The notes: a model not told the origin generated them from the sequence alone. Shown: positions 1-60,359, numbered from the stretch's first letter. The stretch: 64,000 nucleotides of DNA from a virus (IMGVR_UViG_3300005918_000018), one strand, 5' to 3'. Numbers and translations: made by a program.

Positions 1-112
1 ACAACAGTTATCTACTCAAAGAATAGATTGATCCGTTACTTATCCTGTAGTCGGGCTGTCGCCCTTAATTGCGTATCCTAAAGGTTTACCTTGTAGGTTG
101 TCAAGTTTATTT

Positions 113-1171
113 TTAAATTCGTTTCTTTTCAGGGAGGATACTATCAACACTTGTAAGATCTAAACGTGGGAACACCAGACCTTTAAGAATGAAATAATCC
201 TCTAAGAAATGAATCAAAGGGATGTTACGTCTGAAATCTGTAAAGAATTTCCTCCAAGCTTTTCTCCAATGTGCTCCTACAGGTTGGGGGTTTATCCCAA
301 CAATTTTAGCAATTTCTTGTTTTTTAAGTGTTTTCTTATGTTCTATAGCATCCAACCAAACATTCATAACAGCTTCTTGTCCTGTACCACCCCAAGATTT
401 TCTCATATAAGCTCTAATCTTTTTACCTGCTGGGTTATTCATATCATCAAGAATGATACGAGTAAGGAAAGCCAGAGAATCTTTTTCTTTTCGTTTTTTA
501 TCAGCAGGACTCTCACCTATAGGGGTTGCATCAGAATCTTCTTGGATATGTTTCCGTTGTTTGAAAATAGGTTTATTTTTATCCCCTTTACTACGATCTT
601 TATTTTTTGTTATCTGTTTAGTTTTGACTGCTTCAGTGACAACTTCATCCGTAACCCATTTACTTAGAACACCGGCAGCAATCTGTTTGGGGGTTTCTCT
701 ACCTGATAGGATTTTCTTGGAGCCTATTTTCCCAGCTTCATAAGCTTTTTTTTTCTTAGGGCTTAGATCTTTGGCAATACCCATCAGAACTGCTTGAATA
801 ATATCATCAGCCTCAGTGTTCACACCATGTTTATTGATGAAGTTCTCAACTTTATTGTAAAGGATTCTGAACATCCCAGTATTTCCGGGTTCTAACCACT
901 CAGGGTTCAAAGCAGTTCCCTCAGCAGCTTCTTTAGCCCCTGCTAATCCTGCACGGCCTCTGGTCCACCAGATTCCTTCACGAACACCGAAGGCTCCCTC
1001 CAGAATTTGAAGGCGGAAGAACAGGTCATAGTCTCTAGCATTAGACATCAAGTTGGCTAAAAGCCACCTGACGGCAACTTTATCAGAGGCAATCCTGCTT
1101 CTATATTGAAGCATATGGTGGAGAATGTTATGGGCTGTAAGCTGGTTCATTTTAATTCCTTTCATAAACAA
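113..1171 (-). CDS. putative sigma-70-like factor / HTH regulator (weak)
   Basis: 352 aa. 'GIWWTRGRAGLAGA' resembles sigma region 2.3-2.4 (WW aromatic patch). The C-terminal 'TLKKQEIAKIVGINPQPVGAHWRKAW' resembles a region-4 HTH. The true start is probably an internal Met (MNQLT..). Confidence 0.3.
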   Translation of the reverse strand: MFMKGIKMNQLTAHNILHHMLQYRSRIASDKVAVRWLLANLMSNARDYDLFFRLQILEGAFGVREGIWWTRGRAGLAGAKEAAEGTALNPEWLEPGNTGMFRILYNKVENFINKHGVNTEADDIIQAVLMGIAKDLSPKKKKAYEAGKIGSKKILSGRETPKQIAAGVLSKWVTDEVVTEAVKTKQITKNKDRSKGDKNKPIFKQRKHIQEDSDATPIGESPADKKRKEKDSLAFLTRIILDDMNNPAGKKIRAYMRKSWGGTGQEAVMNVWLDAIEHKKTLKKQEIAKIVGINPQPVGAHWRKAWRKFFTDFRRNIPLIHFLEDYFILKGLVFPRLDLTSVDSILPEKKRI

Positions 1172-2543: not shown

Positions 2544-5420
2544 TTAGATTTCAAACTTTAACCAATCTCGGACTGAGTTTGGCTGAGAAGCTTTTTTGGA
2601 TACTTTGCCGTCAGGATAACTTGCATGAAGCATTCGGGAGTACATGCACTTGGCTTCTTTGCTATGTTGTTTGAGGAATCCAGTGATGTTGGCATGATGC
2701 TCTGAGCGTCTCTTATGCAAGTCAGATGCATAATGGCCGATCTCTACTCGAAGTGAATTACACATTTTCATACCAAGAGTGGCTGTCTTAGGACGGAAAC
2801 CATAGAGTCCATTCCGACGGCCTTCAACACCTTTACTGGCAATCTTGGGTCCAACACCCTTCATAGCTTCAACAAGGATCTTAGCAGGCAGGCTGTCAGC
2901 TCGTTTTGCATGAGCTGATAAAAATGCTGACACATCATTGTCTTTATTCCAAGCCATCTTAGCTAATTTCGATGCTGTTCTGGTAGTCTTTCGGATACAG
3001 GCTTCACAATCACCCTGGATTTTCCGAGTGTAGCCGTACAAACCTGATGGGGATTTGGCTGCTTGTTTATTGAAGACACCGCCTAAACTTTCACCTTCTC
3101 CTGTAGGAATGGTGATTTGACCACTCTCTTTATTTACTATAAGGAGATTACGGCTGATCTGGTGTTTGAATTTCCAATCTTTTTCGTCAGAACCTTCTAA
3201 CATGAACTCACTAGGTTCAACTTTGGTACGGTATTTACCGTCAAAAGTGGGGAGTCCTGTAGTTTTCAGAGCTTCTGAGAGCTGTTTGAAAGCAGTGTCA
3301 ATATCTTCACCTGTGTTATCAGCTTTCTTATCGGTGAAGTTGTTTCGGTTCTTGAGATTCTGAAGACGCCATTTTTTAGCATCTTCTTCACTCATGTTTT
3401 CAGTCGGGTCAGCAGGCTTGCCTTCTTCAAACTTGGATTCTAATCCATCATCAGAACGACGTTCATCCATTGGAGTTCTGTCCCAGATACCACCTAATTT
3501 TTCAATGTCCTGATCCATTTGGATCTCATATTCCAGGTCATCCATTGCAGTATGGAATGAAGACAGTTTAGTGTTTGTCTTTTTCTCAGCAGTCTCAATC
3601 AGACCCACCAAGATTTTCTGGTTTTTATTGTCCAAACCATCAAACCAAACTCTCATCTTAGCTCCCTGCCGAAGGGTTTTTCCTGTACTTTTTTCGTACT
3701 GACTCACCAGTTCTCTGGTATCAGCATACAAACTTTTCACAGAAACCAACAGGTTGTAAACATCATCAATGTCCATCCTGTAATAGGATGCAGGGGATTT
3801 GGCAGCTTCTTTGAACTTGTCTTTGTTCAATTCCTTCTGTTCTTTCCATTTCTTCTTATCTTCAGGACTCATGTTCTCAGTCGGGTCAGCAGGGACACCT
3901 TCTTCAAACCGAGCAGACATCTCATCCTCTTGGATGGCTCGACGGCTTTCTCTTTTCACTTTGTCTTCCCAAGCAAAAGCAGCCATATTCAACCAGAAAA
4001 TAACATCAGCAATCTCATCGAAATCATGAAGTTTTTTAATCCCCCCAGCTCTGGAAGCATCAGATGCTTTCCAGTCCCAGAATTCATCAGGCATTTTGAT
4101 TTTGTTGAATTGGTAAGCCTTTGGTGGGAATCTGGAAGCTATGATGTCTCGGACATCACCACAGGTTTTGGCTGTCTTGATTTCAGGTTCCATCCCTGGC
4201 ATCAGGCTTCCTGGACCTTCGGGGAGTCTATCTTCTTCAGTTTGAATGATTTCCCCGGCAGTTAGGTTTTGAAGTTCATCCATAGCTGTCATAGTATTTT
4301 CCTCTTGGGCAAATTTCATATTCCCAGCAGGTTGTTGAATAGCTGATTTAAAGAACGTGATGAAATCTCTATGGAGTTTTAGATAACCATAGAAGGTATC
4401 ATTATTTTCGAAGTTGAAGTTTTGATAGTCTACTTTAACACTACCTTCAATCTCAGCATCTTTGAGCCACTGTTTAGCACTGCTGAGATTAAACTCCGTA
4501 ACATCCTCTAATTTCCCTATTGTGAGCCAAGGTTCGGCATCTTCCCACTCACCATCACCAGGAACCCAATCACTGTTGGGGTCTCCATTGTAGCTCGTGG
4601 GTTTGGAAGGTGATCGGTCATGAGCTGTTTCTAAACCATCATCATAATTGACAGGACCACCATGTTTAATAACCCCGAAATTCTTGATTACCTGATAATG
4701 TCCGTTAACAACAACACCCACGTTTTGGATGGTAATTTTATTGTTAGGTAAATTACCCTCATCCTCATCCCCCTCTATATCTTTAGGTCGGACAACAGGT
4801 TTAGGCACGATGAACCGAGCTCTACCTGAGAGGACGATATACAGATATGGCATATGAGCTGATTGTTTGCTCTCACTAGTAAGTTCTTTCAATTCATCAT
4901 AAGCAGTTATAGTATTTTCCCTTTGGGAGCCTAACCGTAGATACCAACCTGTGTGCTTCTCAAAAACCTTTACCAGTTGGTCAAAATAGACATTTTTGAA
5001 TTCTTTGATTTTTCTAGCACCTTTGGAAGGAGTGGTATATGAGAACTCTAAGTCGTAAAGGTCCATACCATTCAATGTGATTTCAAGGGTGTTACCTGTC
5101 TTGGAAGGCTTTCTGGCAGGCCATTGAAACCAAATCCCTTTTGGCCTTGCTACGACCCGTTTCACACCGAGAAACATTTTAAGTTTTCGAAGACCGCCCA
5201 GTTGTTCTATGATAGTCTTAGCAATCTGATTTGCTTGCTTTGAGGAAGGGCTGGCTTTCTTGAGCAGATCACCATACTCATCATTCATCTCCACCCATTT
5301 CTCAGCAGCTTCAGGATTCCCGTGTTCTTTGAGGTACTTAGGAACGTCCACTGGTTTCCCTTTGGGGTGTCGGCTGACTCGTTCCAGCTCTTTTAGAGCT
5401 TCTTTGGTAGATTTGCTCAT
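2544..5420 (-). CDS. large hypothetical protein with internal tandem repeats
   Basis: 958 aa. Two ~60-aa internal repeats ('FEEG[VK]PADPTENMS.ED.KKW..Q'). No recognisable catalytic motif. First gene of a long minus-strand operon (2544-8782). Confidence 0.5.
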   Translation of the reverse strand: MSKSTKEALKELERVSRHPKGKPVDVPKYLKEHGNPEAAEKWVEMNDEYGDLLKKASPSSKQANQIAKTIIEQLGGLRKLKMFLGVKRVVARPKGIWFQWPARKPSKTGNTLEITLNGMDLYDLEFSYTTPSKGARKIKEFKNVYFDQLVKVFEKHTGWYLRLGSQRENTITAYDELKELTSESKQSAHMPYLYIVLSGRARFIVPKPVVRPKDIEGDEDEGNLPNNKITIQNVGVVVNGHYQVIKNFGVIKHGGPVNYDDGLETAHDRSPSKPTSYNGDPNSDWVPGDGEWEDAEPWLTIGKLEDVTEFNLSSAKQWLKDAEIEGSVKVDYQNFNFENNDTFYGYLKLHRDFITFFKSAIQQPAGNMKFAQEENTMTAMDELQNLTAGEIIQTEEDRLPEGPGSLMPGMEPEIKTAKTCGDVRDIIASRFPPKAYQFNKIKMPDEFWDWKASDASRAGGIKKLHDFDEIADVIFWLNMAAFAWEDKVKRESRRAIQEDEMSARFEEGVPADPTENMSPEDKKKWKEQKELNKDKFKEAAKSPASYYRMDIDDVYNLLVSVKSLYADTRELVSQYEKSTGKTLRQGAKMRVWFDGLDNKNQKILVGLIETAEKKTNTKLSSFHTAMDDLEYEIQMDQDIEKLGGIWDRTPMDERRSDDGLESKFEEGKPADPTENMSEEDAKKWRLQNLKNRNNFTDKKADNTGEDIDTAFKQLSEALKTTGLPTFDGKYRTKVEPSEFMLEGSDEKDWKFKHQISRNLLIVNKESGQITIPTGEGESLGGVFNKQAAKSPSGLYGYTRKIQGDCEACIRKTTRTASKLAKMAWNKDNDVSAFLSAHAKRADSLPAKILVEAMKGVGPKIASKGVEGRRNGLYGFRPKTATLGMKMCNSLRVEIGHYASDLHKRRSEHHANITGFLKQHSKEAKCMYSRMLHASYPDGKVSKKASQPNSVRDWLKFEI

Positions 5421-7348: not shown

Positions 7349-8782
7349 CTATATGGATTTAGCCTGGTCTTTCAAGTAGTCAGGATAGTTTCTCTTTATA
7401 GTGTCTTTTATAGTCTTAATACCAGCCCGATCCTTGGTCAAGGAAAAAGCAGCTATCCCATGAATGGCTAAAGTCATTACATCCCAATCATGGCGGTTAG
7501 CAATGCTTGAAACAACACTATGATCTATCTCATAAGTAGGTTCGTCCCAGAGATCCCCAGCTAATTTGTGCCAGTTGGCATCTTCCAGGATGTCAGCAGT
7601 ATAAGCTCGAACAGTAGAGGGGTCTTTCTTTGCCACCATGTATAAGCCTCTTGCTGATGCCATCTCAGCCTGAACCATACGTTTCAGTACCTGAGCCTCG
7701 GTTTCTTTTTTCTTTTTACCGGGAACACCAACAGATAACTCACTAGCTAACAGCTTTGCTAAAAGTCTTTCAAGTTTGGATGCTGCACCTGTTTGACGGC
7801 TTTTCTTGAGAAGTTCTACAGCTATAGTTGCTGCAATAATAGCACCACCAGTTTTTCTAATTAAGCTGGCATATTTCTTTGACAAGCTATGAGTATTAAG
7901 CATTTCCCCATGCTCTACTGGTCCTATTTGTTCAAGTAGTTTGAAGGTGCTGTTGACCAGTTGGGTATCTCTAGGTTTGAGATCACCAAACATAGCCACA
8001 ATAAACCCACTAACAAAGGCTTTTGCATAAGGAGCTTTGTCTGCTGTAGGGTCTTGCTGTTGATATTTCAAGAGATATAGGAAGATAGCTCCTACCATCT
8101 GTTTTACCAGAGGGACATAAAGATCAAAAGGACCAGCAGCAGCTTGTTTCATTATCCATTGAGCTGCCAAGCTGTTGGCATTTTTCCATTTTCGTTTTTT
8201 GTCAGGGTCTGATTTTTTAGCATCTCCCATATTGACAATTTCTTCAGGAAGAATTTTTGACCTTGTAGCTTTCTCCCAATCTCGTCGGGCAGCAAGGTCA
8301 ATAGGATTTCCTGAATTCCCGTTAAGGTGTGATCTCCACCAAAAATATATGTAGGATTCAGTAGCCATTTCTTCAACACTTTTATTCAGACGTTCTTTGA
8401 GCATGTCGATACTCATACCGCTTGCTGGCCATTCATCTGGATTTTCAGCATATTTATGCGTTTCAGCCCATTTTTTGTTTTCACGGGCTGTTTTCTCTAT
8501 CCATACCCAAGCTTTCCGATCAACAGGACGTATTTCACCATCCCACATCCGTAGCTTTGAAGGCATAGATGCTTTTTTCTTCCTGCTTCTCCAGCCAGGA
8601 TCAATTTTATCGTTCAAGCTGGCACAGAAAGCTCCGGGATTATCAATCTTCCCTTCCATTTTCTTAATGCAGGCAGTCACTTTATGTTTTTTATCCCCTG
8701 TTAATGAAGACCAGAACTTCTTGAGAGAGTCCTGAGTCCAACCTTTGGGGAGTGAATTCCATTTATCGGCATGTCTTTCCAT
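7349..8782 (-). CDS. hypothetical protein
   Basis: 477-aa uninterrupted ORF, last in the minus-strand operon. Confidence 0.5.
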   Translation of the reverse strand: MERHADKWNSLPKGWTQDSLKKFWSSLTGDKKHKVTACIKKMEGKIDNPGAFCASLNDKIDPGWRSRKKKASMPSKLRMWDGEIRPVDRKAWVWIEKTARENKKWAETHKYAENPDEWPASGMSIDMLKERLNKSVEEMATESYIYFWWRSHLNGNSGNPIDLAARRDWEKATRSKILPEEIVNMGDAKKSDPDKKRKWKNANSLAAQWIMKQAAAGPFDLYVPLVKQMVGAIFLYLLKYQQQDPTADKAPYAKAFVSGFIVAMFGDLKPRDTQLVNSTFKLLEQIGPVEHGEMLNTHSLSKKYASLIRKTGGAIIAATIAVELLKKSRQTGAASKLERLLAKLLASELSVGVPGKKKKETEAQVLKRMVQAEMASARGLYMVAKKDPSTVRAYTADILEDANWHKLAGDLWDEPTYEIDHSVVSSIANRHDWDVMTLAIHGIAAFSLTKDRAGIKTIKDTIKRNYPDYLKDQAKSI

Positions 8783-9382: not shown

Positions 9383-9393
9383 ATCAGATACCT

Positions 9394-9430
9394 CCTACTA
9401 CAACAACCCACAACCCAAAGAAACTAAGCT
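9394..9430 (-). promoter_or_regulatory. conserved phage promoter-like motif copy 1
   Basis: Plus-strand text CCTACTACAACAACCCACAA-N-AAACTAAGCT. The TAG stop of the GroEL gene lies inside the motif (GCTTAG). Confidence 0.55.
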
Positions 9431-11780: not shown

Positions 11781-11830
11781 GGCTTAGTTTTCAAAAGTTG
11801 TGGGTTGTTGTAGTAAGAAAGTAATTACTT
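11781..11830 (+). promoter_or_regulatory. conserved phage promoter-like motif copy 2
   Basis: GGCTTAGTTTTCAAAAGTTGTGGGTTGTTGTAGTAAGAAAGTAATTA, 23 nt upstream of the 11853 start. Confidence 0.6.
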
Positions 11831-14797: not shown

Positions 14798-14830
14798 ATG
14801 CCTATACCTTCTCTTATTAGGAGGTATGAC

Positions 14831-15598
14831 ATGAAAATAGATGATAACATTTTCAAATCCATCGTGGAATCCAGTTATTCAATTAGGCAGGTGATTCTAA
14901 AATCAGGGTTAATTCCTGCTGGTGGTAATTATGTAACGATTAAGAACCGAATTGCAGCTTTGGATTTGGATTCCTCTCATTTTCGAGGTCAGGGGTGGCT
15001 GAAAGGTTTGAAAAAACCTTATGGGAATCCTCGAACAAAAGCACTAAAAGAAATTTTTGATACTTATGAGAATTACCCATCACATAGGTTAAAAAATAGG
15101 CTTTTTAAAGAGGGTTTAAAACAAAAAAAATGTAATATGTGTGGACTTAGTATGTGGAATGGTGATGCTATAGCTTTAGAACTTCACCATCTGGATGGGG
15201 ATAAGAAAAATAATAATTTAAGTAATCTTCAGATACTATGTCCAAATTGTCATGCAACTACCAATAATTATAGAGGTAAAGGGGTAAAAACTAAGTATGA
15301 GACGTTATGTTCTGATTGTAGTAAGCCTATCCAACACAGTTCTTTACGTTGCATATCTTGCGTAAAAGAGTCAAAAAAACCGACCCCTGTTTGTTCTAAG
15401 TGTGGAAAACAGGTTAGCAAAAAATCAAGTTTATGTCGTTCTTGTTATAATGACAAAGAAAAATTAAAAAGTAACAAACCTCTTTTTGAAGTCTTAAAAA
15501 AAGATATAGAGGAGTTAAATTATACAGGGGCTGGGAAAAAATATGGTGTTTCAGATAACACAATTAGGAAATGGTTAATATCATATAAGCCTGGGTGA
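14831..15598 (+). CDS. HNH homing endonuclease
   Basis: 'HHLDGDKKNNNLSNLQILCPNCH' is an HNH motif. RBS AGGAGG sits before the second Met (the listed ORF starts at 14798). The last codons (..KPG) and the TGA stop are encoded by the 5' acceptor of the downstream tRNA. Confidence 0.8.
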   Translation: MKIDDNIFKSIVESSYSIRQVILKSGLIPAGGNYVTIKNRIAALDLDSSHFRGQGWLKGLKKPYGNPRTKALKEIFDTYENYPSHRLKNRLFKEGLKQKKCNMCGLSMWNGDAIALELHHLDGDKKNNNLSNLQILCPNCHATTNNYRGKGVKTKYETLCSDCSKPIQHSSLRCISCVKESKKPTPVCSKCGKQVSKKSSLCRSCYNDKEKLKSNKPLFEVLKKDIEELNYTGAGKKYGVSDNTIRKWLISYKPG

Positions 15599-18417: not shown

Positions 18418-18464
18418 AGCTTAGTTTTCATTTTTTGGGGGTTGTTGGGGTAAGAAAGTAATTA
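18418..18464 (+). promoter_or_regulatory. conserved phage promoter-like motif copy 3 (variant) driving a tRNA
   Basis: AGCTTAGTTTTCATTTTTTGGGGGTTGTTGGGGTAAGAAAGTAATTA, immediately upstream of tRNA-Thr(UGU). Confidence 0.5.
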
Positions 18465-22473: not shown

Positions 22474-22507
22474 AATTTATTTTCTCCATTTCAGAACCAT
22501 TGTGGCT

Positions 22508-22544
22508 CTTACTACAACAACCCACAGGTTGAAGAAACTAAGCC
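22508..22544 (-). promoter_or_regulatory. conserved phage promoter-like motif copy 4
   Basis: ~35-70 nt upstream of the MBL start. Confidence 0.6.
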
Positions 22545-22761
22545 ATAATAAAAAATACCCGCCAAGACCTAAATCTTGACGGGCATCGACACACCATTTG
22601 TAATTAAAATGGTTCGTCAGGGGGACGACACGGGATGTCGAACCTTCCACCACCCTATTTTTGTAGTGCCAGATTATAGGGAAACTGACGCCCTTTGTAA
22701 ATACAACTTGAGATTCAACAGTAAATAATTCATAAACAGACCAACTCCAACTTTTACTCAC

Positions 22762-23068
22762 GCGTTAGGGATACCACTAAAGAAAATGGGGACACTATGA
22801 TAACGGTTTCAACACAGGTTTTTCCAATTAGATCTCTTTGAGTATTAGCCTAATACTCTAAATCTCTAACTTTGATTTACGGTTGACCCGCTCCACGCTT
22901 CTCACTAACGTAGGTGTCCCCACCCACGGCTGTACCTCAGCTTCGGGACGATGTTTTATGGTAGCTAAACCACTTCATTTCATCGGGGTTCCCGCCCGAC
23001 TAGCCGGAGGCTAATCCAGCATGTCTCTAATCAGTCTTTCGACTGTTATTTGTTTGTCAATGAACGTC
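22762..23068 (-). ncRNA. ORF-free structured region between two promoter-motif copies (candidate sRNA/leader)
   Basis: ~310 nt with no ORF on either strand. GC-rich hairpins (e.g. CCTCAGCTTCGGGACG). Immediately downstream of motif copy 5. Confidence 0.3.
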
Positions 23069-23070
23069 TT

Positions 23071-23108
23071 TCTTACTACAACAACCCACGAGAATCCAAA
23101 ACTAAGCC
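23071..23108 (-). promoter_or_regulatory. conserved phage promoter-like motif copy 5
   Basis: TCTTACTACAACAACCCACGAGAATCCAAAACTAAGCC. Confidence 0.6.
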
Positions 23109-23115
23109 ATTTGTT

Positions 23116-24090
23116 TTAGCCCCAGTGTTTTCCGTACTTTAAATCTTTTACTGTATCCCAGTAAACGAACTTCTCAGCTTCTTCTGGGGTGTAGACTTTC
23201 AGGAGCTCTCGTCCGAACGTGGAGACTCCTTTGGCCAATCCAGCTTCATATTGGAAATGCCACCATTCTGCGGAAGTGTAAGTTCCTTTATAGAAACTGC
23301 TTCTGGCTCGGATGGGTTCAAATCCAAAGGCTTTGGCCAAATCTGTGAAACTGAAGAAAACTCCTTTGGTTTCTTTTTCTTTAATCTTGCCTCCTGTCAT
23401 ATAAGTAGATAGTAGACAGTCAGTAGTACGAGTCGGGAGTTTCTGGGATTCAATGAGATGGTCCATCTCCTTCATAGTTTTGTCAGTCCGACACCAAACA
23501 GACCATTGTCGGCCTTCATAAGCCACAATAACGAAAGGGTCTACGTCTGGTGTCTGCATCCCTGTGGGAAGTGCTAAATCAAAAGCACGGCCTGTGTAAT
23601 GGAAACTGGTCTTTGACCGACTGGCATTGCTTCCAGTAGCCAGAGTTCGTTTTCCTCCAGCTGTTGTGAGGATACCACCGAGTTTATGAACTGTATTATA
23701 GAGGTCAATGTAAGCATTGGCTACATCTTCTCTGAGTTGGAGAAGGTTATAACCATCTCGTACCTGAAAGATATCTGCTGGGCATTTAGCCCACTTCATC
23801 ATCACTGGTTCTACAGGCATGTCTTTAGGTGTGTACGTCTCCAACAGAAGATATTGTAAAGCCCGTTCATCATCCAATTTTCTGAGTTCTTGGTCAAATA
23901 CTTTAGCTGTGGTGTTGCCGACGATCCCGTCATCATATAAACCATGGTCATGTTGAAATTTTTCTACAGCTTGCTCAAGCAACGGACCAAAAACCCCGTC
24001 ATTACTGAGTGTGCATCGTTGGCCGTAGAACTGAAGACCTTCTTGAAGTTTCTTAACATCCGGCCCTTTAGAACCTTTTTTTAATAACAT
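23116..24090 (-). CDS. endolysin: peptidoglycan-binding domain + M15 (VanY-like) peptidase
   Basis: N-terminal 'LKKGSKGPDVKKLQEGLQFYG...DGVFGPLLEQAVEKFQ' is a PG_binding_1 domain. 'SFHYTGRAFDL' is the SxHxxGxAxD zinc-peptidase motif. Confidence 0.75.
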   Translation of the reverse strand: MLLKKGSKGPDVKKLQEGLQFYGQRCTLSNDGVFGPLLEQAVEKFQHDHGLYDDGIVGNTTAKVFDQELRKLDDERALQYLLLETYTPKDMPVEPVMMKWAKCPADIFQVRDGYNLLQLREDVANAYIDLYNTVHKLGGILTTAGGKRTLATGSNASRSKTSFHYTGRAFDLALPTGMQTPDVDPFVIVAYEGRQWSVWCRTDKTMKEMDHLIESQKLPTRTTDCLLSTYMTGGKIKEKETKGVFFSFTDLAKAFGFEPIRARSSFYKGTYTSAEWWHFQYEAGLAKGVSTFGRELLKVYTPEEAEKFVYWDTVKDLKYGKHWG

Positions 24091-24914
24091 ATTAATTTCC
24101 TTTAAAAAACAACAGGAGTCAAGAGGTTAGCTAAATCCCCTGACTCCCATCTACTATTAACCCAAAATCATTGGCCAAGGTACGGGTTTGCACCGCATTG
24201 TCACCCGGTTAGAGTGGTTTTTACTGTTGATAACATTACCCAGCATCGAACACATCGAGCGATAAGTTACCCATCCCTGACCTATTCGGAATAAGGCTGT
24301 TTTTTTGTTCCCAGTTCACCCTGCTGGTAGGGTCTGTCCGACGGACAGAACAGGCTGGTTTAGCCCGCGGGAATGGTCATAGACCGTACAGCTTACCACA
24401 GGCTGACATCAGACCGGTTAATAAATTCTTAATAATAACCTGATCCTGGAAAACCGCTCTGCCACCCGGGGGAGGTGGGACTCTAAAGCAATTCTCCAAA
24501 ACCAGGTTATTACTAAGAAAAATAATGTCGGATTTCCGATTCGTCACCGACTATGTTCTTTAGCCTAGATTCCATATCATATCTAGCGTTGTGGAGTAAC
24601 TCCAAAGAACATTATTTATTGATCGTCTATAAAAATAATGTCAAAAGTGGGGTACCAGCCCTCCCAACTCGGCAATTTCAGAATAGCTCTAGGACGACCT
24701 GCTTGGTTAAAACAGTGATGGTCCTATGGTAGTTCTGAAGTACTTTTGTGGTCAAACTTTTGACAAACTGTTCCAAGAATTGGGGATTCTCACCCCGAGT
24801 AGCACACGAAGTCTACCAATGCAGCGGTTAACGCAGTTAATATGGCTATTAAAAGGTTTACCCATACCGCATGACCGTTCGGTATTCGGACCAGATTCCT
24901 GGAAAAATTAAATA
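24091..24914 (-). ncRNA. ~820-nt ORF-free highly structured region downstream of tmRNA (candidate large ncRNA)
   Basis: No ORF >60 aa on the minus strand. Numerous long-range inverted repeats (AATAACCTG/CAGGTTATT; ATGTTCTTTAG/CCAAAGAACAT; GCCACCCGGGGGAGGTGGGAC). I could not find RNase P RNA P4 or CR motifs. Confidence 0.3.
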
Positions 24915-25268
24915 TGGTGGAGCCGGAGGGTATCGAACCCTCGTCCAAAATAAATTCCTTAACAGATACTACATGCTTATTCCGTTACCTTTTTTCCACT
25001 CATGCGGAACGGACAAATCTTCTGAGTGGGTTGTTTAGAGTTTTGGTTCTCGGCTAATATGCCTCTAACGATACATATAATGCCCAGTCTTCCTGTCTCT
25101 GATGCCCTGACCTCGACCCGGAGACCCGATCAAGCAGGACAAGCAGCTTATGCTGCTATTGCTAATTCCGTGTTGGCAATTAAAAGTTTGGTCTATTTTT
25201 ACGTAGCCTAGACTAACTACGACATGCATCCGTCAGCTTCATTACCCTGTCGAATCCAGTTCGGCCCC
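24915..25268 (-). ncRNA. ssrA: tmRNA (ssrA), tag peptide (A)ANTELAIAA
   Basis: The 5' end GGGGCCGAACTGGATTCGACAGGG closely matches the tmRNA 5' consensus GGGGCUGAUUCUGGAUUCGACGGG. The 3' end has a tRNA-like T-arm GAGGGTTCGATACCCTC plus CGGCTCCACCA, which pairs with the 5' GGGGCCG. The internal reading frame GCC AAC ACG GAA TTA GCA ATA GCA GCA TAA (25148-25177) gives a tag ending in AIAA. Confidence 0.8.
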
Positions 25269-25294
25269 ATATTTGATTGTGAAAGATCATCTGT

Positions 25295-25332
25295 TCTTAT
25301 ATCAACAACCCACAATATATGAAAACTAAGCC
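25295..25332 (-). promoter_or_regulatory. conserved phage promoter-like motif copy 6 (upstream of tmRNA)
   Basis: TTCTTATATCAACAACCCACAATATATGAAAACTAAGCC, ~25 nt upstream of the tmRNA 5' end. Confidence 0.6.
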
Positions 25333-25348
25333 AAAAGCAATTAAAAAA

Positions 25349-26581
25349 TTAAAGTAACAACCACATTTGCCTGATTCCAAAGTCCCGTTGCTTCATAATT
25401 TCCGACCTTGTTTGGGTCTCCCCAGATACTACCGACCGAAATAAAGGAGTAAGTAGCTCGTGAGCTATGTCTTTTAAGAATTTCCCTTTAGTGAAAATGT
25501 CCTCTTTCGGGATATAAATATCCATGTTGTTAGTAAGCATATCATATGTCTGCTTGTTGGCCGTAACTTTTATCACAGGAGCTATGGCAGAACCAAGTGG
25601 CGAGCCTATACCTGTGGTGAACATTGCAAGGTGTGCTCCACCAATGAGCATCCCTGTCATACATAAGAGATCCTGACCGGGACCATCCATGAAATAAAGC
25701 CCGGGGTAACTGGGGATTTTTTGAGAGTAAGCCAACACTTTTTGAATCTTTATTAAATCTGAATGTCCCATTTTACGGGAGTTACCCATGGATTTCTCAG
25801 TAAGAGTAGATATCCCACTATCAATGTTTCCCGGAGTAGGTTCACTTTCTTTGATGTATTTATCCAAAGCCTTAGTTACGTTATCATAGAAACCTATCAT
25901 GTTTCTCAGTTTGGTTACTGCTTCTTTTTTAGTTTTCTCATAAAAGTATTGTTCGGCTCCCAATAGCTCACTAGTCTGAGAAAAAATGGCAGACCCGCCT
26001 TGTTGTATCATGAAGTCTGTAAAGTGGCCGACTGCTGGGTTAGAAAACAAACCTGATGTTGGGTCTGAACCGCCATTTAGGATGGCTGCTGTGAGATTAC
26101 TGTAAGTTATCTCTGTTCGTTTTTTATCACGGATATTATTAAGGAGTACTTCTACTTTTTCTATCCCCTGCTCAATACAGGAATTGGTATTACCTGTAGC
26201 TTGGATATTCAAATGATCAAAAGTCACTCCAATGTCTGACATACGTTTAATCATGTTACTGGTTTTGTCCTGATAACCATCACAACAAAACTGGCCACAA
26301 CCTAAACTGACTAAGAGGACAGCTCCCACATTTGGGTGTTTAGCAGCCCCTAAGAGGGTCCTGAAAGCAACAACTTCATCCGAACCAGTATGGCAACACC
26401 CTGCCCCATGATTAATGGCTACACAGTAATTTTCGTTATGGTCTCCAAAGGACTCATCTTTGAAATGTTCAGCAATTTGATTAACGACGTTATTGGCACA
26501 AAAGACAGTAGGGATTATGAGAAGGTGGTTTCGGATACCGAAACTTTTACCTTGTCTGAAATATCCTTTTAAAATAGTCAT
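25349..26581 (-). CDS. UxaA/GarD-family sugar-acid dehydratase, catalytic (C-terminal) subunit
   Basis: 'LLIIPTVFCANNVVNQI' and 'NVGAVLLVSLGCGQ' align with E. coli UxaA 'WILPTVGCVNGIARQI' and 'NAGAVLVIGLGCEN'. Confidence 0.7.
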   Translation of the reverse strand: MTILKGYFRQGKSFGIRNHLLIIPTVFCANNVVNQIAEHFKDESFGDHNENYCVAINHGAGCCHTGSDEVVAFRTLLGAAKHPNVGAVLLVSLGCGQFCCDGYQDKTSNMIKRMSDIGVTFDHLNIQATGNTNSCIEQGIEKVEVLLNNIRDKKRTEITYSNLTAAILNGGSDPTSGLFSNPAVGHFTDFMIQQGGSAIFSQTSELLGAEQYFYEKTKKEAVTKLRNMIGFYDNVTKALDKYIKESEPTPGNIDSGISTLTEKSMGNSRKMGHSDLIKIQKVLAYSQKIPSYPGLYFMDGPGQDLLCMTGMLIGGAHLAMFTTGIGSPLGSAIAPVIKVTANKQTYDMLTNNMDIYIPKEDIFTKGKFLKDIAHELLTPLFRSVVSGETQTRSEIMKQRDFGIRQMWLLL

Positions 26582-26590
26582 GTTTACCAC

Positions 26591-39336: not shown

Positions 39337-39379
39337 GGCTTAGTTTCTCTAAGTCATGGGTTGTTGATGTAAGAAAGAG
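39337..39379 (+). promoter_or_regulatory. conserved phage promoter-like motif copy 9
   Basis: GGCTTAGTTTCTCTAAGTCATGGGTTGTTGATGTAAGAAAGAG, 11 nt upstream of the rtcB ATG. Confidence 0.6.
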
Positions 39380-51323: not shown

Positions 51324-51361
51324 TTGTAATACAACAACCCACGAAAATCAAAAACTAAGCC
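51324..51361 (-). promoter_or_regulatory. conserved phage promoter-like motif copy 10
   Basis: Upstream of the HNH gene on the minus strand. Confidence 0.55.
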
Positions 51362-56589: not shown

Positions 56590-57330
56590 ATTCAAAAATC
56601 AATATTCGTTAAATTGTTATCTCCTTAGTAGGAGGTGTTGTTTATGTTACCCTTATTTACTGACGAAGAATTTGAAAAAGCTAAGTCCAGAGAAAAACTC
56701 CCACTGAAATGTAAGCATTGCGGGAAAACTTTTTATCAAACTAAGAATCAAATTCAAGTTGGGTATTCCCCCAAGTATCATACAAAATGGGAATTCTGCT
56801 CTCCTTCCTGTATGGGTTCTTATCGGTATAAAGGTCACCGTATTGATTTTAACTGTGAACAATGTAGGAAATTATCCAGTAAGTTAAAATCTGCATATAA
56901 AAGAACAAAACATCATTTCTGTTCAAAATCTTGTTCAGCTACTTATCATAACCAAAGAAAACAAACAGGAACTCGGAGATCAAAATTTGAAGTCTGGGTT
57001 GAAAAACAACTGGTCTCCTTGTATCCAAATCTTGAGTTCCATTTTAACAAGAAAGACACCATTCAATCAGAACTAGATATCTACATCCCCTCTCTCAAGC
57101 TGGCTTTTGAGATAAATGGGGTTTTTCATTATGAACCTATCTTTGGACAAGATAAACTTGATAAGATTCAAAAAAATGAAAAAGGTAAATTTGCTGCCTG
57201 TATTGAAAAGAACATCAGTCTTTGTATTATTGACGTTAGTACTTTAAGCTACTTCAAGCCTAAAAAAGCTCAGAAGTTCCTTGACATAATTACTAATATC
57301 ATTGATCAAGCTATCAGCCTGGATTCATAA
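56590..57330 (+). repeat. dispersed paralogous cassette B
   Basis: Leader AATATTCGTTAAATTGTTATCTCCTTAGTAGGAGGTGTTG plus CDS, ~80% nt identity to cassettes A and C. Confidence 0.7.
56635..57330 (+). CDS. Zn-ribbon + putative nuclease-like protein, paralog B
   Basis: 231 aa. Same architecture as 27345..28040. Confidence 0.6.
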   Translation: MLFMLPLFTDEEFEKAKSREKLPLKCKHCGKTFYQTKNQIQVGYSPKYHTKWEFCSPSCMGSYRYKGHRIDFNCEQCRKLSSKLKSAYKRTKHHFCSKSCSATYHNQRKQTGTRRSKFEVWVEKQLVSLYPNLEFHFNKKDTIQSELDIYIPSLKLAFEINGVFHYEPIFGQDKLDKIQKNEKGKFAACIEKNISLCIIDVSTLSYFKPKKAQKFLDIITNIIDQAISLDS

Positions 57331-57450: not shown

Positions 57451-57463
57451 AAAAAAGTTTTTC

Positions 57464-57499
57464 TCAATACAACAACCCACGACTTTTCAAAACTAAGCC
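57464..57499 (-). promoter_or_regulatory. conserved phage promoter-like motif copy 11
   Basis: Contains the TAG stop of the guanylate kinase gene (GGCTTAG). Sits upstream of tRNA-Met on the minus strand. Confidence 0.55.
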
Positions 57500-58205: not shown

Positions 58206-58244
58206 TTCTTACCTCAACAACCCACAAAAAAGAGAAACTAAGCC
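58206..58244 (-). promoter_or_regulatory. conserved phage promoter-like motif copy 12
   Basis: TTCTTACCTCAACAACCCACAAAAAAGAGAAACTAAGCC. Confidence 0.6.
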
Positions 58245-59619: not shown

Positions 59620-60359
59620 TGGGATTTAATTTCAATATTCATTAAATTGCCATCTCCTTATAGGAGGTGTTGATTATGATCCCTTTATATACCCCAGAAG
59701 AATTCGAGAATGCTAAGTCCAGAGAGAAACTCCCCATCAAATGTAAACGCTGTGGAAAAACATTTTATAAGACCAAACATGTTGTGTATATGACATTCTC
59801 AAAGACATCTACCACAAATGATTTCTGTAGCAGATTTTGTAGTTCTAAATATCTTCATGAAAGCCGCTGTGTTGATTTTGACTGTGAGCAATGTGGAAAA
59901 CACACCAGTAATATCTTATCTGAATTTAATAGAAACAAACACCATTTCTGTTCTCGGTCTTGCTCTGCTACCTATTATAACCAAAGGAAACAAACAGGAA
60001 TCCGAAGGTCAAAATTTGAAGTCTGGGTTGAAGAACAGTTGGTCTCCTTGTACCCAAATCTTGAATTTCACTTTAATAGGAAAGATACAATCCAATCGGA
60101 ACTTGATATTTATATCCCATCTCTTAAATTAGCTTTTGAGATAAATGGTATTTTCCATTATGAACCCATCTTTGGTCAAGATAAACTTGACCGAACTCAA
60201 AAGAATGAAAAAGGAAAGTTTGCAGCTTGTTTTGAAAAGAACATTAGCCTTTGTATAATTGATATTAGCACTTTAAATTATTTTAAACCAAAAAAGGCTC
60301 AAAAGTTCCTTGATATTATTACTACTATCATTGATCAAACTCTTAGCCTGGAGTCTTAA
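59620..60359 (+). repeat. dispersed paralogous cassette C
   Basis: Leader CAATATTCATTAAATTGCCATCTCCTTATAGGAGGTGTTGATT plus CDS. Confidence 0.7.
59667..60359 (+). CDS. Zn-ribbon + putative nuclease-like protein, paralog C
   Basis: 230 aa. Same architecture as paralogs A and B. Confidence 0.6.
   Translation: MLIMIPLYTPEEFENAKSREKLPIKCKRCGKTFYKTKHVVYMTFSKTSTTNDFCSRFCSSKYLHESRCVDFDCEQCGKHTSNILSEFNRNKHHFCSRSCSATYYNQRKQTGIRRSKFEVWVEEQLVSLYPNLEFHFNRKDTIQSELDIYIPSLKLAFEINGIFHYEPIFGQDKLDRTQKNEKGKFAACFEKNISLCIIDISTLNYFKPKKAQKFLDIITTIIDQTLSLES

Follow-up and report, generated by a model that had tools for sequence, protein, structure and literature searches.

What occupies the 824 nucleotides (nt) between the transfer-messenger RNA (tmRNA) gene and the endolysin gene of the virus IMGVR_UViG_3300005918_000018? 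In the stretch of DNA analysed here, 64,000 nt long and called the window throughout, positions 24091-24914 lie on the minus strand between a tmRNA gene at 24915-25268, complete with its CCA end and specifying the tag ANTELAIAA (ARAGORN; Rfam RF00023, 159.3 bits), and an endolysin gene at 23116-24090 (ATG at 24088-24090), whose product has a PG_binding_1 domain and resembles PHROG endolysin families through its N-terminal domain only. An initial annotation had described this interval as free of open reading frames (ORFs), strongly self-complementary and lying directly 3' of the tmRNA in the same orientation, and had proposed that it could be a large structured non-coding RNA or a processed leader. 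Our data indicate that the conserved non-coding element in this interval, which we name E1, is very probably an RNA whose structure is under selection. As to its role, we favour, with a probability of about 0.4, a leader or attenuator in front of the endolysin gene that is made as part of the tmRNA transcript.

Evidence that E1 is a selected, structured RNA

The position and orientation relative to the tmRNA are confirmed by the ARAGORN and Rfam calls given above, and the minus strand indeed lacks any ORF of more than 60 amino acids (aa). The longest there has 56 aa (24377-24547, GTG start), another of 52 aa overlaps the tmRNA, and the longest on the plus strand have 59 and 61 aa. Each of the six frames contains 14-21 stops, and reassigning any single stop codon (TAA, TAG or TGA) gives at most 122 open codons and opens no gene. 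The accompanying statement that the genome is elsewhere packed to nearly 100% coding density was looser: stretches of 300 nt or more that lack a 100-aa ORF occur 15 times in the window, and most of these contain tRNA genes (32 tRNA genes and one tmRNA in the window). The strong self-complementarity is real: every inverted repeat that had been named is present, and the minus strand folds with a minimum free energy of -276.1 kcal/mol compared to -230 +/- 7.4 kcal/mol for 20 dinucleotide shuffles (z -6.2). The plus strand also folds better than its shuffles (-235 kcal/mol, z -4.5), yet when the 154 half-overlapping 824-nt stretches of the window are ranked after regression on GC content, the minus-strand fold comes first (residual -47.6 kcal/mol, 3.2 standard deviations) and the plus-strand fold is ordinary, at rank 34.

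Ten contigs recovered by an exact-protein look-up of the endolysin carry the region with 100% identity, save one mismatch in one partial copy, and because these copies are identical they hold no comparative signal. A protein search returned five related endolysins, 64-70% identical, from uncultivated phages, and their contigs together with one JGI metagenome pattern scan define four further types. Between tmRNA and endolysin, type A (L045, L046, L047) has an endonuclease cassette followed by ~817 nt of non-coding sequence, type D (L055, L058) has ~500 nt and type B (L049, L050, L057) 400 nt of non-coding sequence, and type C (three independent contigs, L052, L053 and L054) has 62 nt only. Using nhmmer, blastn and MAFFT we found homologues of parts of E1 at the same locus in types A, D and B, which brings the E1-bearing types, including the source phage, to four. 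The comparative genomics that the initial annotation had recommended thus yields homologous non-coding sequence, and the protein gene in relatives that it had considered as a sign of a decayed pseudogene did not appear, no ORF being conserved across the types. Type C, with an endolysin ~70% identical, has no E1 and no visible terminator in its 62-nt interval (for example L053 2181-2242); there the endolysin gene comes straight after the tmRNA, and E1 is therefore dispensable.

The core and 3' domain of E1 (described below) are 70-78% identical between types, compared to 66-88% for the tmRNA and 43-57% for the third codon positions of the endolysin gene, and the 5' module, M1, keeps its fold at an identity of 52-62%. 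Covariation was counted on three to four distinct sequences with structures predicted from those same sequences. On this basis 94.6% of the helix cells of M1 are paired and 12 of its 28 pairs have changed on both sides, compared to 2-5 in controls with slid partners. The corresponding values for the core are 97.5% and 5 of 20 pairs (controls 0-1), and for the core, 3' domain and terminator together 96.9% and 14 of 88 pairs (controls 0-5). An absence of conservation or covariation, which had been named as a possible failure of the RNA proposal, is thus not what the relatives present: the core and 3' domain are 70-78% identical, the predicted helices are kept by compensatory changes well above the slid controls, and this conserved, covarying non-coding sequence supports the original suggestion of a large structured RNA or processed leader.

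The strand on which this structure is read can also be assigned. The consensus helices contain 45 G·U compared to 4 A·C cells in the core and 3' domain and 8 compared to 3 in M1, the antisense strand would lose 17% of the consensus pairs, and the covariance model (CM) of the core, R2, scores 97.6 bits on the sense strand compared to 21.4 bits on the antisense strand. The G·U excess, the sense-strand R2 score and a U-run on the minus strand therefore indicate an RNA read in the direction of the tmRNA and the endolysin gene.

E1 has a narrow distribution in the collections searched. The CM of M1, R1, gives 124-137 bits in the four E1 types and no other match, and neither R1 and R2 nor the nhmmer profiles found a second copy in the window or in ~40 related loci. 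A more distant relative found through the GD_AH gene upstream of the tmRNA (L061) has no E1 and carries its tmRNA elsewhere, and endolysin relatives of at most 48% identity (L001-L034) have neither a nearby tmRNA nor E1. No homologue was found by blastn among INPHARED phages. The wide searches of IMG/VR, JGI metagenomes and GTDB were exact-pattern scans: six DNA patterns (one mis-specified) and two protein-anchored scans gave no new homologue in IMG/VR, where the sole pattern match (L060) was a chance match; the JGI metagenomes returned types A, B and D again and nothing else; and the GTDB genomes gave 0 matches and then 6 chance matches, the best scoring 18 bits with R1.

Architecture of E1

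Table 1. Features of the E1 locus. Positions are those of the window; E1 is read on the minus strand.
Feature	Position	Strand	Description and occurrence
Promoter-like site upstream of tmRNA	25276-25310	-	sigma-70-like, TTGATA-18-CACAAT
Copies of the 16-mer, minus strand	25295-25310, 23071-23086, 22507-22522, 57462-57477, 58207-58222, 9393-9408, 51324-51339	-	
Copies of the 16-mer, plus strand	11803-11818, 18440-18455, 39359-39374	+	
5' spacer, tmRNA to M1	24768-24914	-	147 nt; hairpin GGGG-UGAGAAU-CCCC; source phage only (alignment A1)
Module M1	24637-24767	-	~130 nt; closing helix and six inner helices; all four E1 types
Lineage-specific insert	24520-24636	-	117 nt; local hairpins including AUGUUCUUU/AAAGAACAU; absent from A, D and B
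Long imperfect hairpin	24426-24519	-	94 nt; 33-nt arms, apex CCACC-UCCCCCG-GGUGG; shared with type A only
Small hairpin	24390-24404	-	apex with second UGGU, in conserved run CUGUGGUA; source phage, A and D
Core	24302-24375	-	three adjacent hairpins; all four E1 types (alignment A9)
3' multi-junction domain	24157-24294	-	~140 nt; source phage, A and D, not B (alifold A2)
Intrinsic terminator	24104-24151	-	15-bp stem GAUGGGAGUCAGGGG/CUCUUGACUCCUGUU, -20.2 kcal/mol, then GUUUUUU; source phage, A and D, absent in B
Shine-Dalgarno region	24091-24103	-	AAAGGAAAUUAAU, directly after the terminator, then the endolysin AUG
Inverted repeat, 33-nt arms	24426-24458/24487-24519		contains AATAACCTG/CAGGTTATT and a CCACC..GGTGG apex
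Inverted repeat ATGTTCTTT/AAAGAACAT	24553-24561/24604-24612		named in the initial annotation
Inverted repeat, 10-nt perfect arms	24639-24648/24756-24765		additional to those named before
Inverted repeat, terminator arms	24115-24128/24134-24147		additional to those named before

About 660 nt of the interval are conserved, and they are divided into modules (Table 1). The 5' spacer is absent from types D and B and has no recognisable homology in type A (alignment A1); its first ~15 nt, UAUUUAAUUUUUCC, are common to the source phage and the E1-less type C. M1 starts ~10 nt past the CCA end of the tmRNA in type D and ~5 nt past it in type B. Its closing helix pairs UGUCAAAAG (24757-24765) with CUUUUGACA (24639-24647) and reads UGCCAAGAG/CUCUUGGCA in type A and UGUUAAGAG/CUCUUAACA in type B. 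One hairpin loop of M1 (24703-24711) carries AACC(A/G), and the loop UGGU of another hairpin (24649-24661) is invariant.

The middle of E1 is variable. Type D has nothing there, and the source phage and type A share GAGUCCCACC at an aligned position inside the long hairpin. Type B has ~170 nt including the T-arm-like GUGGGUUCGAGUCCCAC; this stretch (L049 ~7735-7900, equal to L057 ~110-275, minus strand) contains a perfect T-arm-like hairpin, GUGGG-UUCGAGU-CCCAC, and a weak match to the Rfam family YrlA (Y RNA-like; 23 bits compared to a gathering score of 69), and ARAGORN calls no tRNA in it.

Two of the six pairs of the small hairpin that follows are compensatory (alifold A2). The core consists of the hairpins GCGGGCU-AAACC-AGCCUGU, UCUGUCC-GUC-GGACAGA and CCAGCA-GGGUG-AACUGG, and directly 5' of it stands an invariant UUCCC. 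Pairing of this UUCCC with the ribosome-binding site of the endolysin gene, as suggested by RNAalifold, is no better than in shuffled sequence, and we discarded it.

In the 3' domain, two stacked closing helices, UUAUUCCGAA/UUUGGGUUAA and GGUCAGGG/CCUUGGCC, surround a junction from which emerge a long variable hairpin (24229-24271), the hairpin CACUC-UAACC-GGGUG and a T-loop-like hairpin, UGCGG-UGCAAAC-CCGUA (24181-24197). The 3' strand of the closing helix (24157-24172, minus strand) contains a conserved mini-ORF of four codons followed by three in-frame stops, AUG AUU UUG GGU UAA UAG UAG in the source phage and type D and AUG AUU CAG AGU UAG UAG UAG in type A. It has no obvious ribosome-binding site and is probably a by-product of the helix. 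All 15 pairs of the terminator helix are formed (100% paired) and two are compensatory; its loop exceeds 8 nt, and for this reason a simple terminator scan did not pick it up. Across the four E1 types the 3' end of E1 lies 12-45 nt from the endolysin ATG.

E1 as a proposed leader of the endolysin gene

The promoter-like site upstream of the tmRNA overlaps a copy, with three mismatches, of the 16-mer GGTTGTTGTAGTAAGA. With up to three mismatches this 16-mer occurs 10 times in the window compared to 0.79 expected, and a reading of the coordinates places the copies checked upstream of a same-strand gene, tRNA or tmRNA. It stands at equivalent places in the relatives as well: in type A one copy precedes the tmRNA by 28 nt, and all types have one just past the endolysin stop. 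Judged from its sequence and placement, the 16-mer is probably a phage-specific promoter element. In no type does such a motif occur in the interval from tmRNA to endolysin gene, and E1 is therefore probably synthesised as a continuation of the tmRNA transcript. A sigma-70-like site inside M1 (24755-24726) was rejected as a promoter, as it is not conserved in the aligned relatives. Most simply, the tmRNA, E1 and the endolysin gene would belong to a single transcription unit, which the E1 terminator interrupts in three of the four E1 types.

Transcription would start at the promoter-like site upstream of the tmRNA and give a single tmRNA-E1 primary transcript, from which the tmRNA would be cut off to leave E1 as the 5' part of whatever continues. 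Because the 13 nt between the end of the terminator and the endolysin start leave no room for a promoter after the U-run, transcripts from the tmRNA promoter must cross the terminator in order to reach the endolysin gene, and we therefore favour a role in cis for the 3' domain and terminator. Together they would act as a leader or attenuator that stops most of these transcripts, so that the endolysin gene would be reached only under some condition. The strands have an attenuator-like arrangement (GGUCAGGG with CCUUGGCC in the 3' domain, GAGUCAGGGG with CCUCUUGACUC in the terminator), and in one possible switch CCUUGGC (24174-24180) would pair with GUCAGGG (24138-24144) and disrupt the terminator stem; such a 7-bp antiterminator helix of strands 2 and 3 can form in all three terminator-bearing types, with 20 of 21 cells paired. 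The fact that M1 and the core are kept in type B, which has neither the 3' domain nor the terminator, makes a further, more general role likely. The invariant loops (UGGU twice, AACCA-type twice) might kiss each other or bind the ACCA 3' ends of tmRNA or tRNAs.

Several observations weigh against this interpretation. The antiterminator pairing is matched by 338 of 500 column shuffles and is indistinguishable from chance. The covariation statistics, for the small number of sequences and the self-derived structures noted above, are weak in absolute terms and not of the grade that R-scape would demand. It is from sequence features that we infer the transcription of E1, its co-transcription with the tmRNA and its termination. 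At 400-820 nt E1 far exceeds typical riboswitch leaders. With no terminator in type B and no E1 in type C, control of the endolysin gene is not its universal role, and the adjacency of E1 and endolysin, which is shared by descent among close relatives, does not count as independent evidence of coupling.

Comparison with known RNAs

Rfam was scanned at gathering thresholds over the whole window and, with permissive filters and E<=10, over 23900-25400 and the type A, D and B contigs L047, L055 and L057. As the initial annotation had recommended, this included E1, which gave chance-level matches only (DUF3085 at 19.8 bits, FopS at 18.8 bits, and mir-876). The further suggestion in that annotation of an RNase P-like RNA or a known ribozyme found no support, as no Rfam family matches the conserved modules at E=10; no RNase P family appears at E<=10 in 23900-25400 or in the three relatives, and on these scans bacterial RNase P RNA was rejected as a detectable identity along with GOLLD, ROOL, T-box, Y RNA, 6S RNA and the known riboswitches. 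A hepatitis delta virus (HDV)-like ribozyme is not detectable after the tmRNA of the window at E<=10, unlike in type A. Group I and group II introns were set aside as well, there being no Rfam match, a complete tmRNA before E1 and a complete endolysin ORF after it; in the exon comparison, the E1-less type C shares only the ~15-nt 5' flank.

A protein-coding gene or pseudogene was likewise rejected, since neither the standard code nor the reassignment of one stop gives a long ORF and no ORF is conserved; an antisense 'LFPVHPAGRVCPTDRTGW' ORF that covers the core loses its frame in type D, and tblastn ruled out that the region is a decayed version of the 186-aa ORF found in type A. E1 has no meaningful long-range complementarity to the tmRNA or to a second element, E2, which is described below (best 11 nt, E 0.1). 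With no curated family match, and not found in the reference collections of phages and genomes that were searched, E1 is a candidate new RNA class, with four sequence types known. Its general kind is already known, whether it is counted among the large folded RNAs that phages encode next to tRNA-type genes or among the structured leaders that end in a terminator.

Among large phage RNAs, GOLLD (Weinberg et al. 2009, as summarised in PMC12286853 and PMC5737381) is ~800 nt long and encoded near tRNA islands, with a conserved 3' region, a variable 5' region and, in some members, tRNAs in the linker (PMC12286853). E1 resembles it in its 824 nt beside a tmRNA, its ornate multi-junction fold, its conserved and variable parts, the tRNA-like sequence in the variable part of some members (the T-arm of type B) and the lack, common to both, of an associated protein gene. 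It differs in that its universal parts are the 5' module M1 and the central core rather than the 3' region, which type B lacks, in that it abuts the endolysin start codon, and in that it occurs in one narrow phage clade only and has no match to the GOLLD model at E<=10. ROOL, another large phage or prophage RNA with many helices found near tRNA islands (PMC5737381), shares these general traits with E1, which differs from it in size and module order and does not match its model.

E1 is also like an attenuating leader or riboswitch, in that the ribosome-binding site of an ORF comes directly after an intrinsic terminator which itself follows a structured domain, and in that its helix strands follow a pattern (1≈3, 2≈4) that permits switching between terminator and antiterminator. 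In T-box leaders a UGGN sequence pairs with the ACCA 3' end of a tRNA, and the conserved UGGU of E1 could do the same; the M1 hairpin of type D reads GGGGUGGUACCCCGC, which we take to resemble the T-box motif. In E1, however, this UGGU is a hairpin loop in M1 (24653-24657) instead of an antiterminator bulge and is separated from the downstream terminator by more than 500 nt in the source phage and by ~350 nt in type D. No Stem I or specifier loop could be identified in E1, nor did any Rfam T-box model match or a candidate ligand or factor for switching the fold emerge, and E1 is 2-3 times larger than T-box and other attenuating leaders, with no terminator in type B.

A third comparison is the late control of phage lambda, where a short terminated transcript (pR'-tR', the '6S RNA') is made upstream of the lysis genes and Q antitermination allows read-through. 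The E1 terminator likewise stands directly upstream of a lysis gene whose expression must depend on read-through; here, in contrast, the upstream transcript would consist of a tmRNA and a 0.8-kb conserved structured RNA, and no antiterminator protein or binding site was identified for E1.

Neighbouring elements

Directly after the endolysin stop lies E2, a conserved non-coding element of ~550 nt (22540-23090, minus strand). It begins with a copy of the promoter-like 16-mer (23071-23086) and ends with a clear terminator, GCCCGUCAAGA..UCUUGGCGGGU followed by UAUUUUUUAUU (~22545-22580). Its fold (z -4.2) ranks second in GC-corrected stability among the minus-strand stretches of the window, and it is conserved in all five phage types including the E1-less type C (nhmmer E 5e-137 to 2e-24), with invariant runs that include CCGAAGCUGAGGUACAGCCGU and UAGUGAGAAGC and 9 of 44 alifold pairs compensatory. 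No Rfam family and no INPHARED or IMG/VR match was found for E2. From its sequence it looks like a stand-alone gene for a large non-coding RNA.

The cassette of type A (L047 60-770, equal to L045 ~3450-4160, and also in L046) lies between tmRNA and E1. The tmRNA copy ends in ...GCUCCA without CCA and is followed directly by an HDV-like ribozyme fold (Rfam HDV-F-prausnitzii, 28.5 bits, below the gathering score of 44), in which P1, P3, P4 and the GCUAAU strand align and in which, by eye, a 7-bp P2 (UACAAAU/AUUUGUA) that the model does not score can be added. After it comes an ORF for a 186-aa HNH-type endonuclease (PHROG endonuclease, E 3e-18). At its 3' end this ORF overlaps another copy of the tmRNA 3' end, one that does bear CCA. 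The arrangement suggests that a homing-endonuclease cassette invaded the tmRNA 3' end, with a putative ribozyme that would recreate that end; a comparison is offered by the theta ribozymes found 3' of phage tRNAs (PMC10879173). The permuted 'tmRNA*' that ARAGORN calls in type A is a by-product of the 3'-end duplication.

HNH-like endonuclease ORFs also lie amid the tRNA genes of the window (14798-15598, 56635-57330 and 59667-60359, all on the plus strand); two resemble the ORF of the type A cassette by tblastn and one has weak HNH_3 and zinc-ribbon Pfam matches. The tRNA arrays contain duplicated tRNAs, such as two tRNA-Phe and two tRNA-Tyr, and the window also encodes a ThrRS and a chaperonin-like gene. 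Upstream of the tmRNA (25349-26590, minus strand) is a gene for a UxaA/altronate-dehydratase-like protein (Pfam GD_AH_second and GD_AH_C), whose best named homologues outside the phage clade, at ~45% identity, are from Thermoprotei and other archaeal metagenome-assembled genomes. The same protein is encoded on a contig of 402,136 bp, and the source is therefore a giant phage.

Alternative explanations

In the main rival explanation the endolysin gene has no part: E1 could be a stable trans-acting 'ornate' RNA like GOLLD or ROOL, transcribed along with tRNA-like genes and freed by processing, with the terminator marking its 3' end. We regard this as possible though doubtful, and give no better odds to its corollary that E1 would work independently of the endolysin, as a scaffold, a cage or a binder of tRNA, tmRNA or the ribosome, with the endolysin expressed through leaky or factor-driven read-through. 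Its size (~660 nt conserved, 824 nt in total), multi-junction build and lineage-specific expansion hairpins would suit such an RNA, as would its place in the tRNA/tmRNA island of a giant phage (the longest database contig being ~402 kb), and the T-arm in the middle of type B recalls the linker tRNAs of GOLLD (PMC12286853). Type B, moreover, keeps M1 and the core without a terminator, and the neighbouring E2, with its own promoter-like motif and terminator, suggests that stand-alone large RNAs occur here. Nevertheless, no Rfam model including GOLLD and ROOL matches at E=10, the RNA of type B would have no separate 3' end and would continue into the endolysin ORF, and in every type that has it E1 is the 5' flank of the endolysin start, only 12-45 nt away. 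The proposal that E1 and E2 are both new self-assembling 'ornate' RNAs of the GOLLD and ROOL sort is a long shot. We would say much the same of a more elaborate version of the leader reading, a speculative one, in which E1 founds a class of large phage RNAs that sense how the translation apparatus is faring: the invariant UGGU loops would capture the free ACCA ends of tmRNA or tRNAs, in the style of a T-box or of RNase P L15, and this capture, at similarly slender odds, would switch the downstream domain and the terminator and couple tmRNA/tRNA charging to endolysin timing and hence to lysis.

It is very unlikely that E1 is a passenger or remnant left by mobile DNA directed at the 3' end of the tmRNA, whether an integrative element or a cassette with a homing endonuclease. 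We think it equally improbable that the structure of E1 works for such an element, for instance during the processing of RNA, and not for the phage. The presence/absence and modular polymorphism among close relatives would fit, and in type A an HNH-type ORF and an HDV-like fold are inserted at, and duplicate, the tmRNA 3' end immediately upstream of E1, with HNH-like ORFs scattered among the tRNA genes of the window. E1 itself, however, lacks an ORF and terminal repeats, neither the window nor the ~40 related loci contain a second copy, three types carry it without the HNH cassette, and its conservation, well above that of the neutral third codon positions, and its compensatory changes argue for selection at the level of RNA. 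Less likely still, and in our view most improbable, is the idea that 24091-24914 acts at the level of DNA, as a cruciform, a packaging site or an origin of replication, or that it is a protein gene that has decayed or been recoded. Long inverted repeats and two strands that both fold better than shuffles could suggest a function in DNA, but the strand asymmetry of 45 G·U to 4 A·C, the terminator U-run on the minus strand and a GC-corrected stability that is exceptional on that strand only do not; the coding version is contradicted by the 14-21 stops per frame, by the lack of a recoded long ORF or any conserved ORF, and by the antisense frame over the core, which changes in type D.

Significance

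Bacterial and phage RNAs that are large and complex in fold are rare, and every class described to date, among them rRNA, RNase P, group I and II introns, OLE, GOLLD, ROOL and raiA, has stood out in its biology or its structure. E1 is a further candidate class without detectable relationship to known large RNAs, located in the translation-gene island of an uncultivated giant phage. The same locus offers two further leads, namely E2 and the homing-endonuclease cassette of type A, which apparently rebuilds the tmRNA 3' end with an HDV-like ribozyme. The position of E1 is unusual, at the end of a phage tmRNA transcription unit and abutting the endolysin start, and suggests the hypothesis that an RNA-based link may connect a translation-rescue RNA to the timing of lysis.

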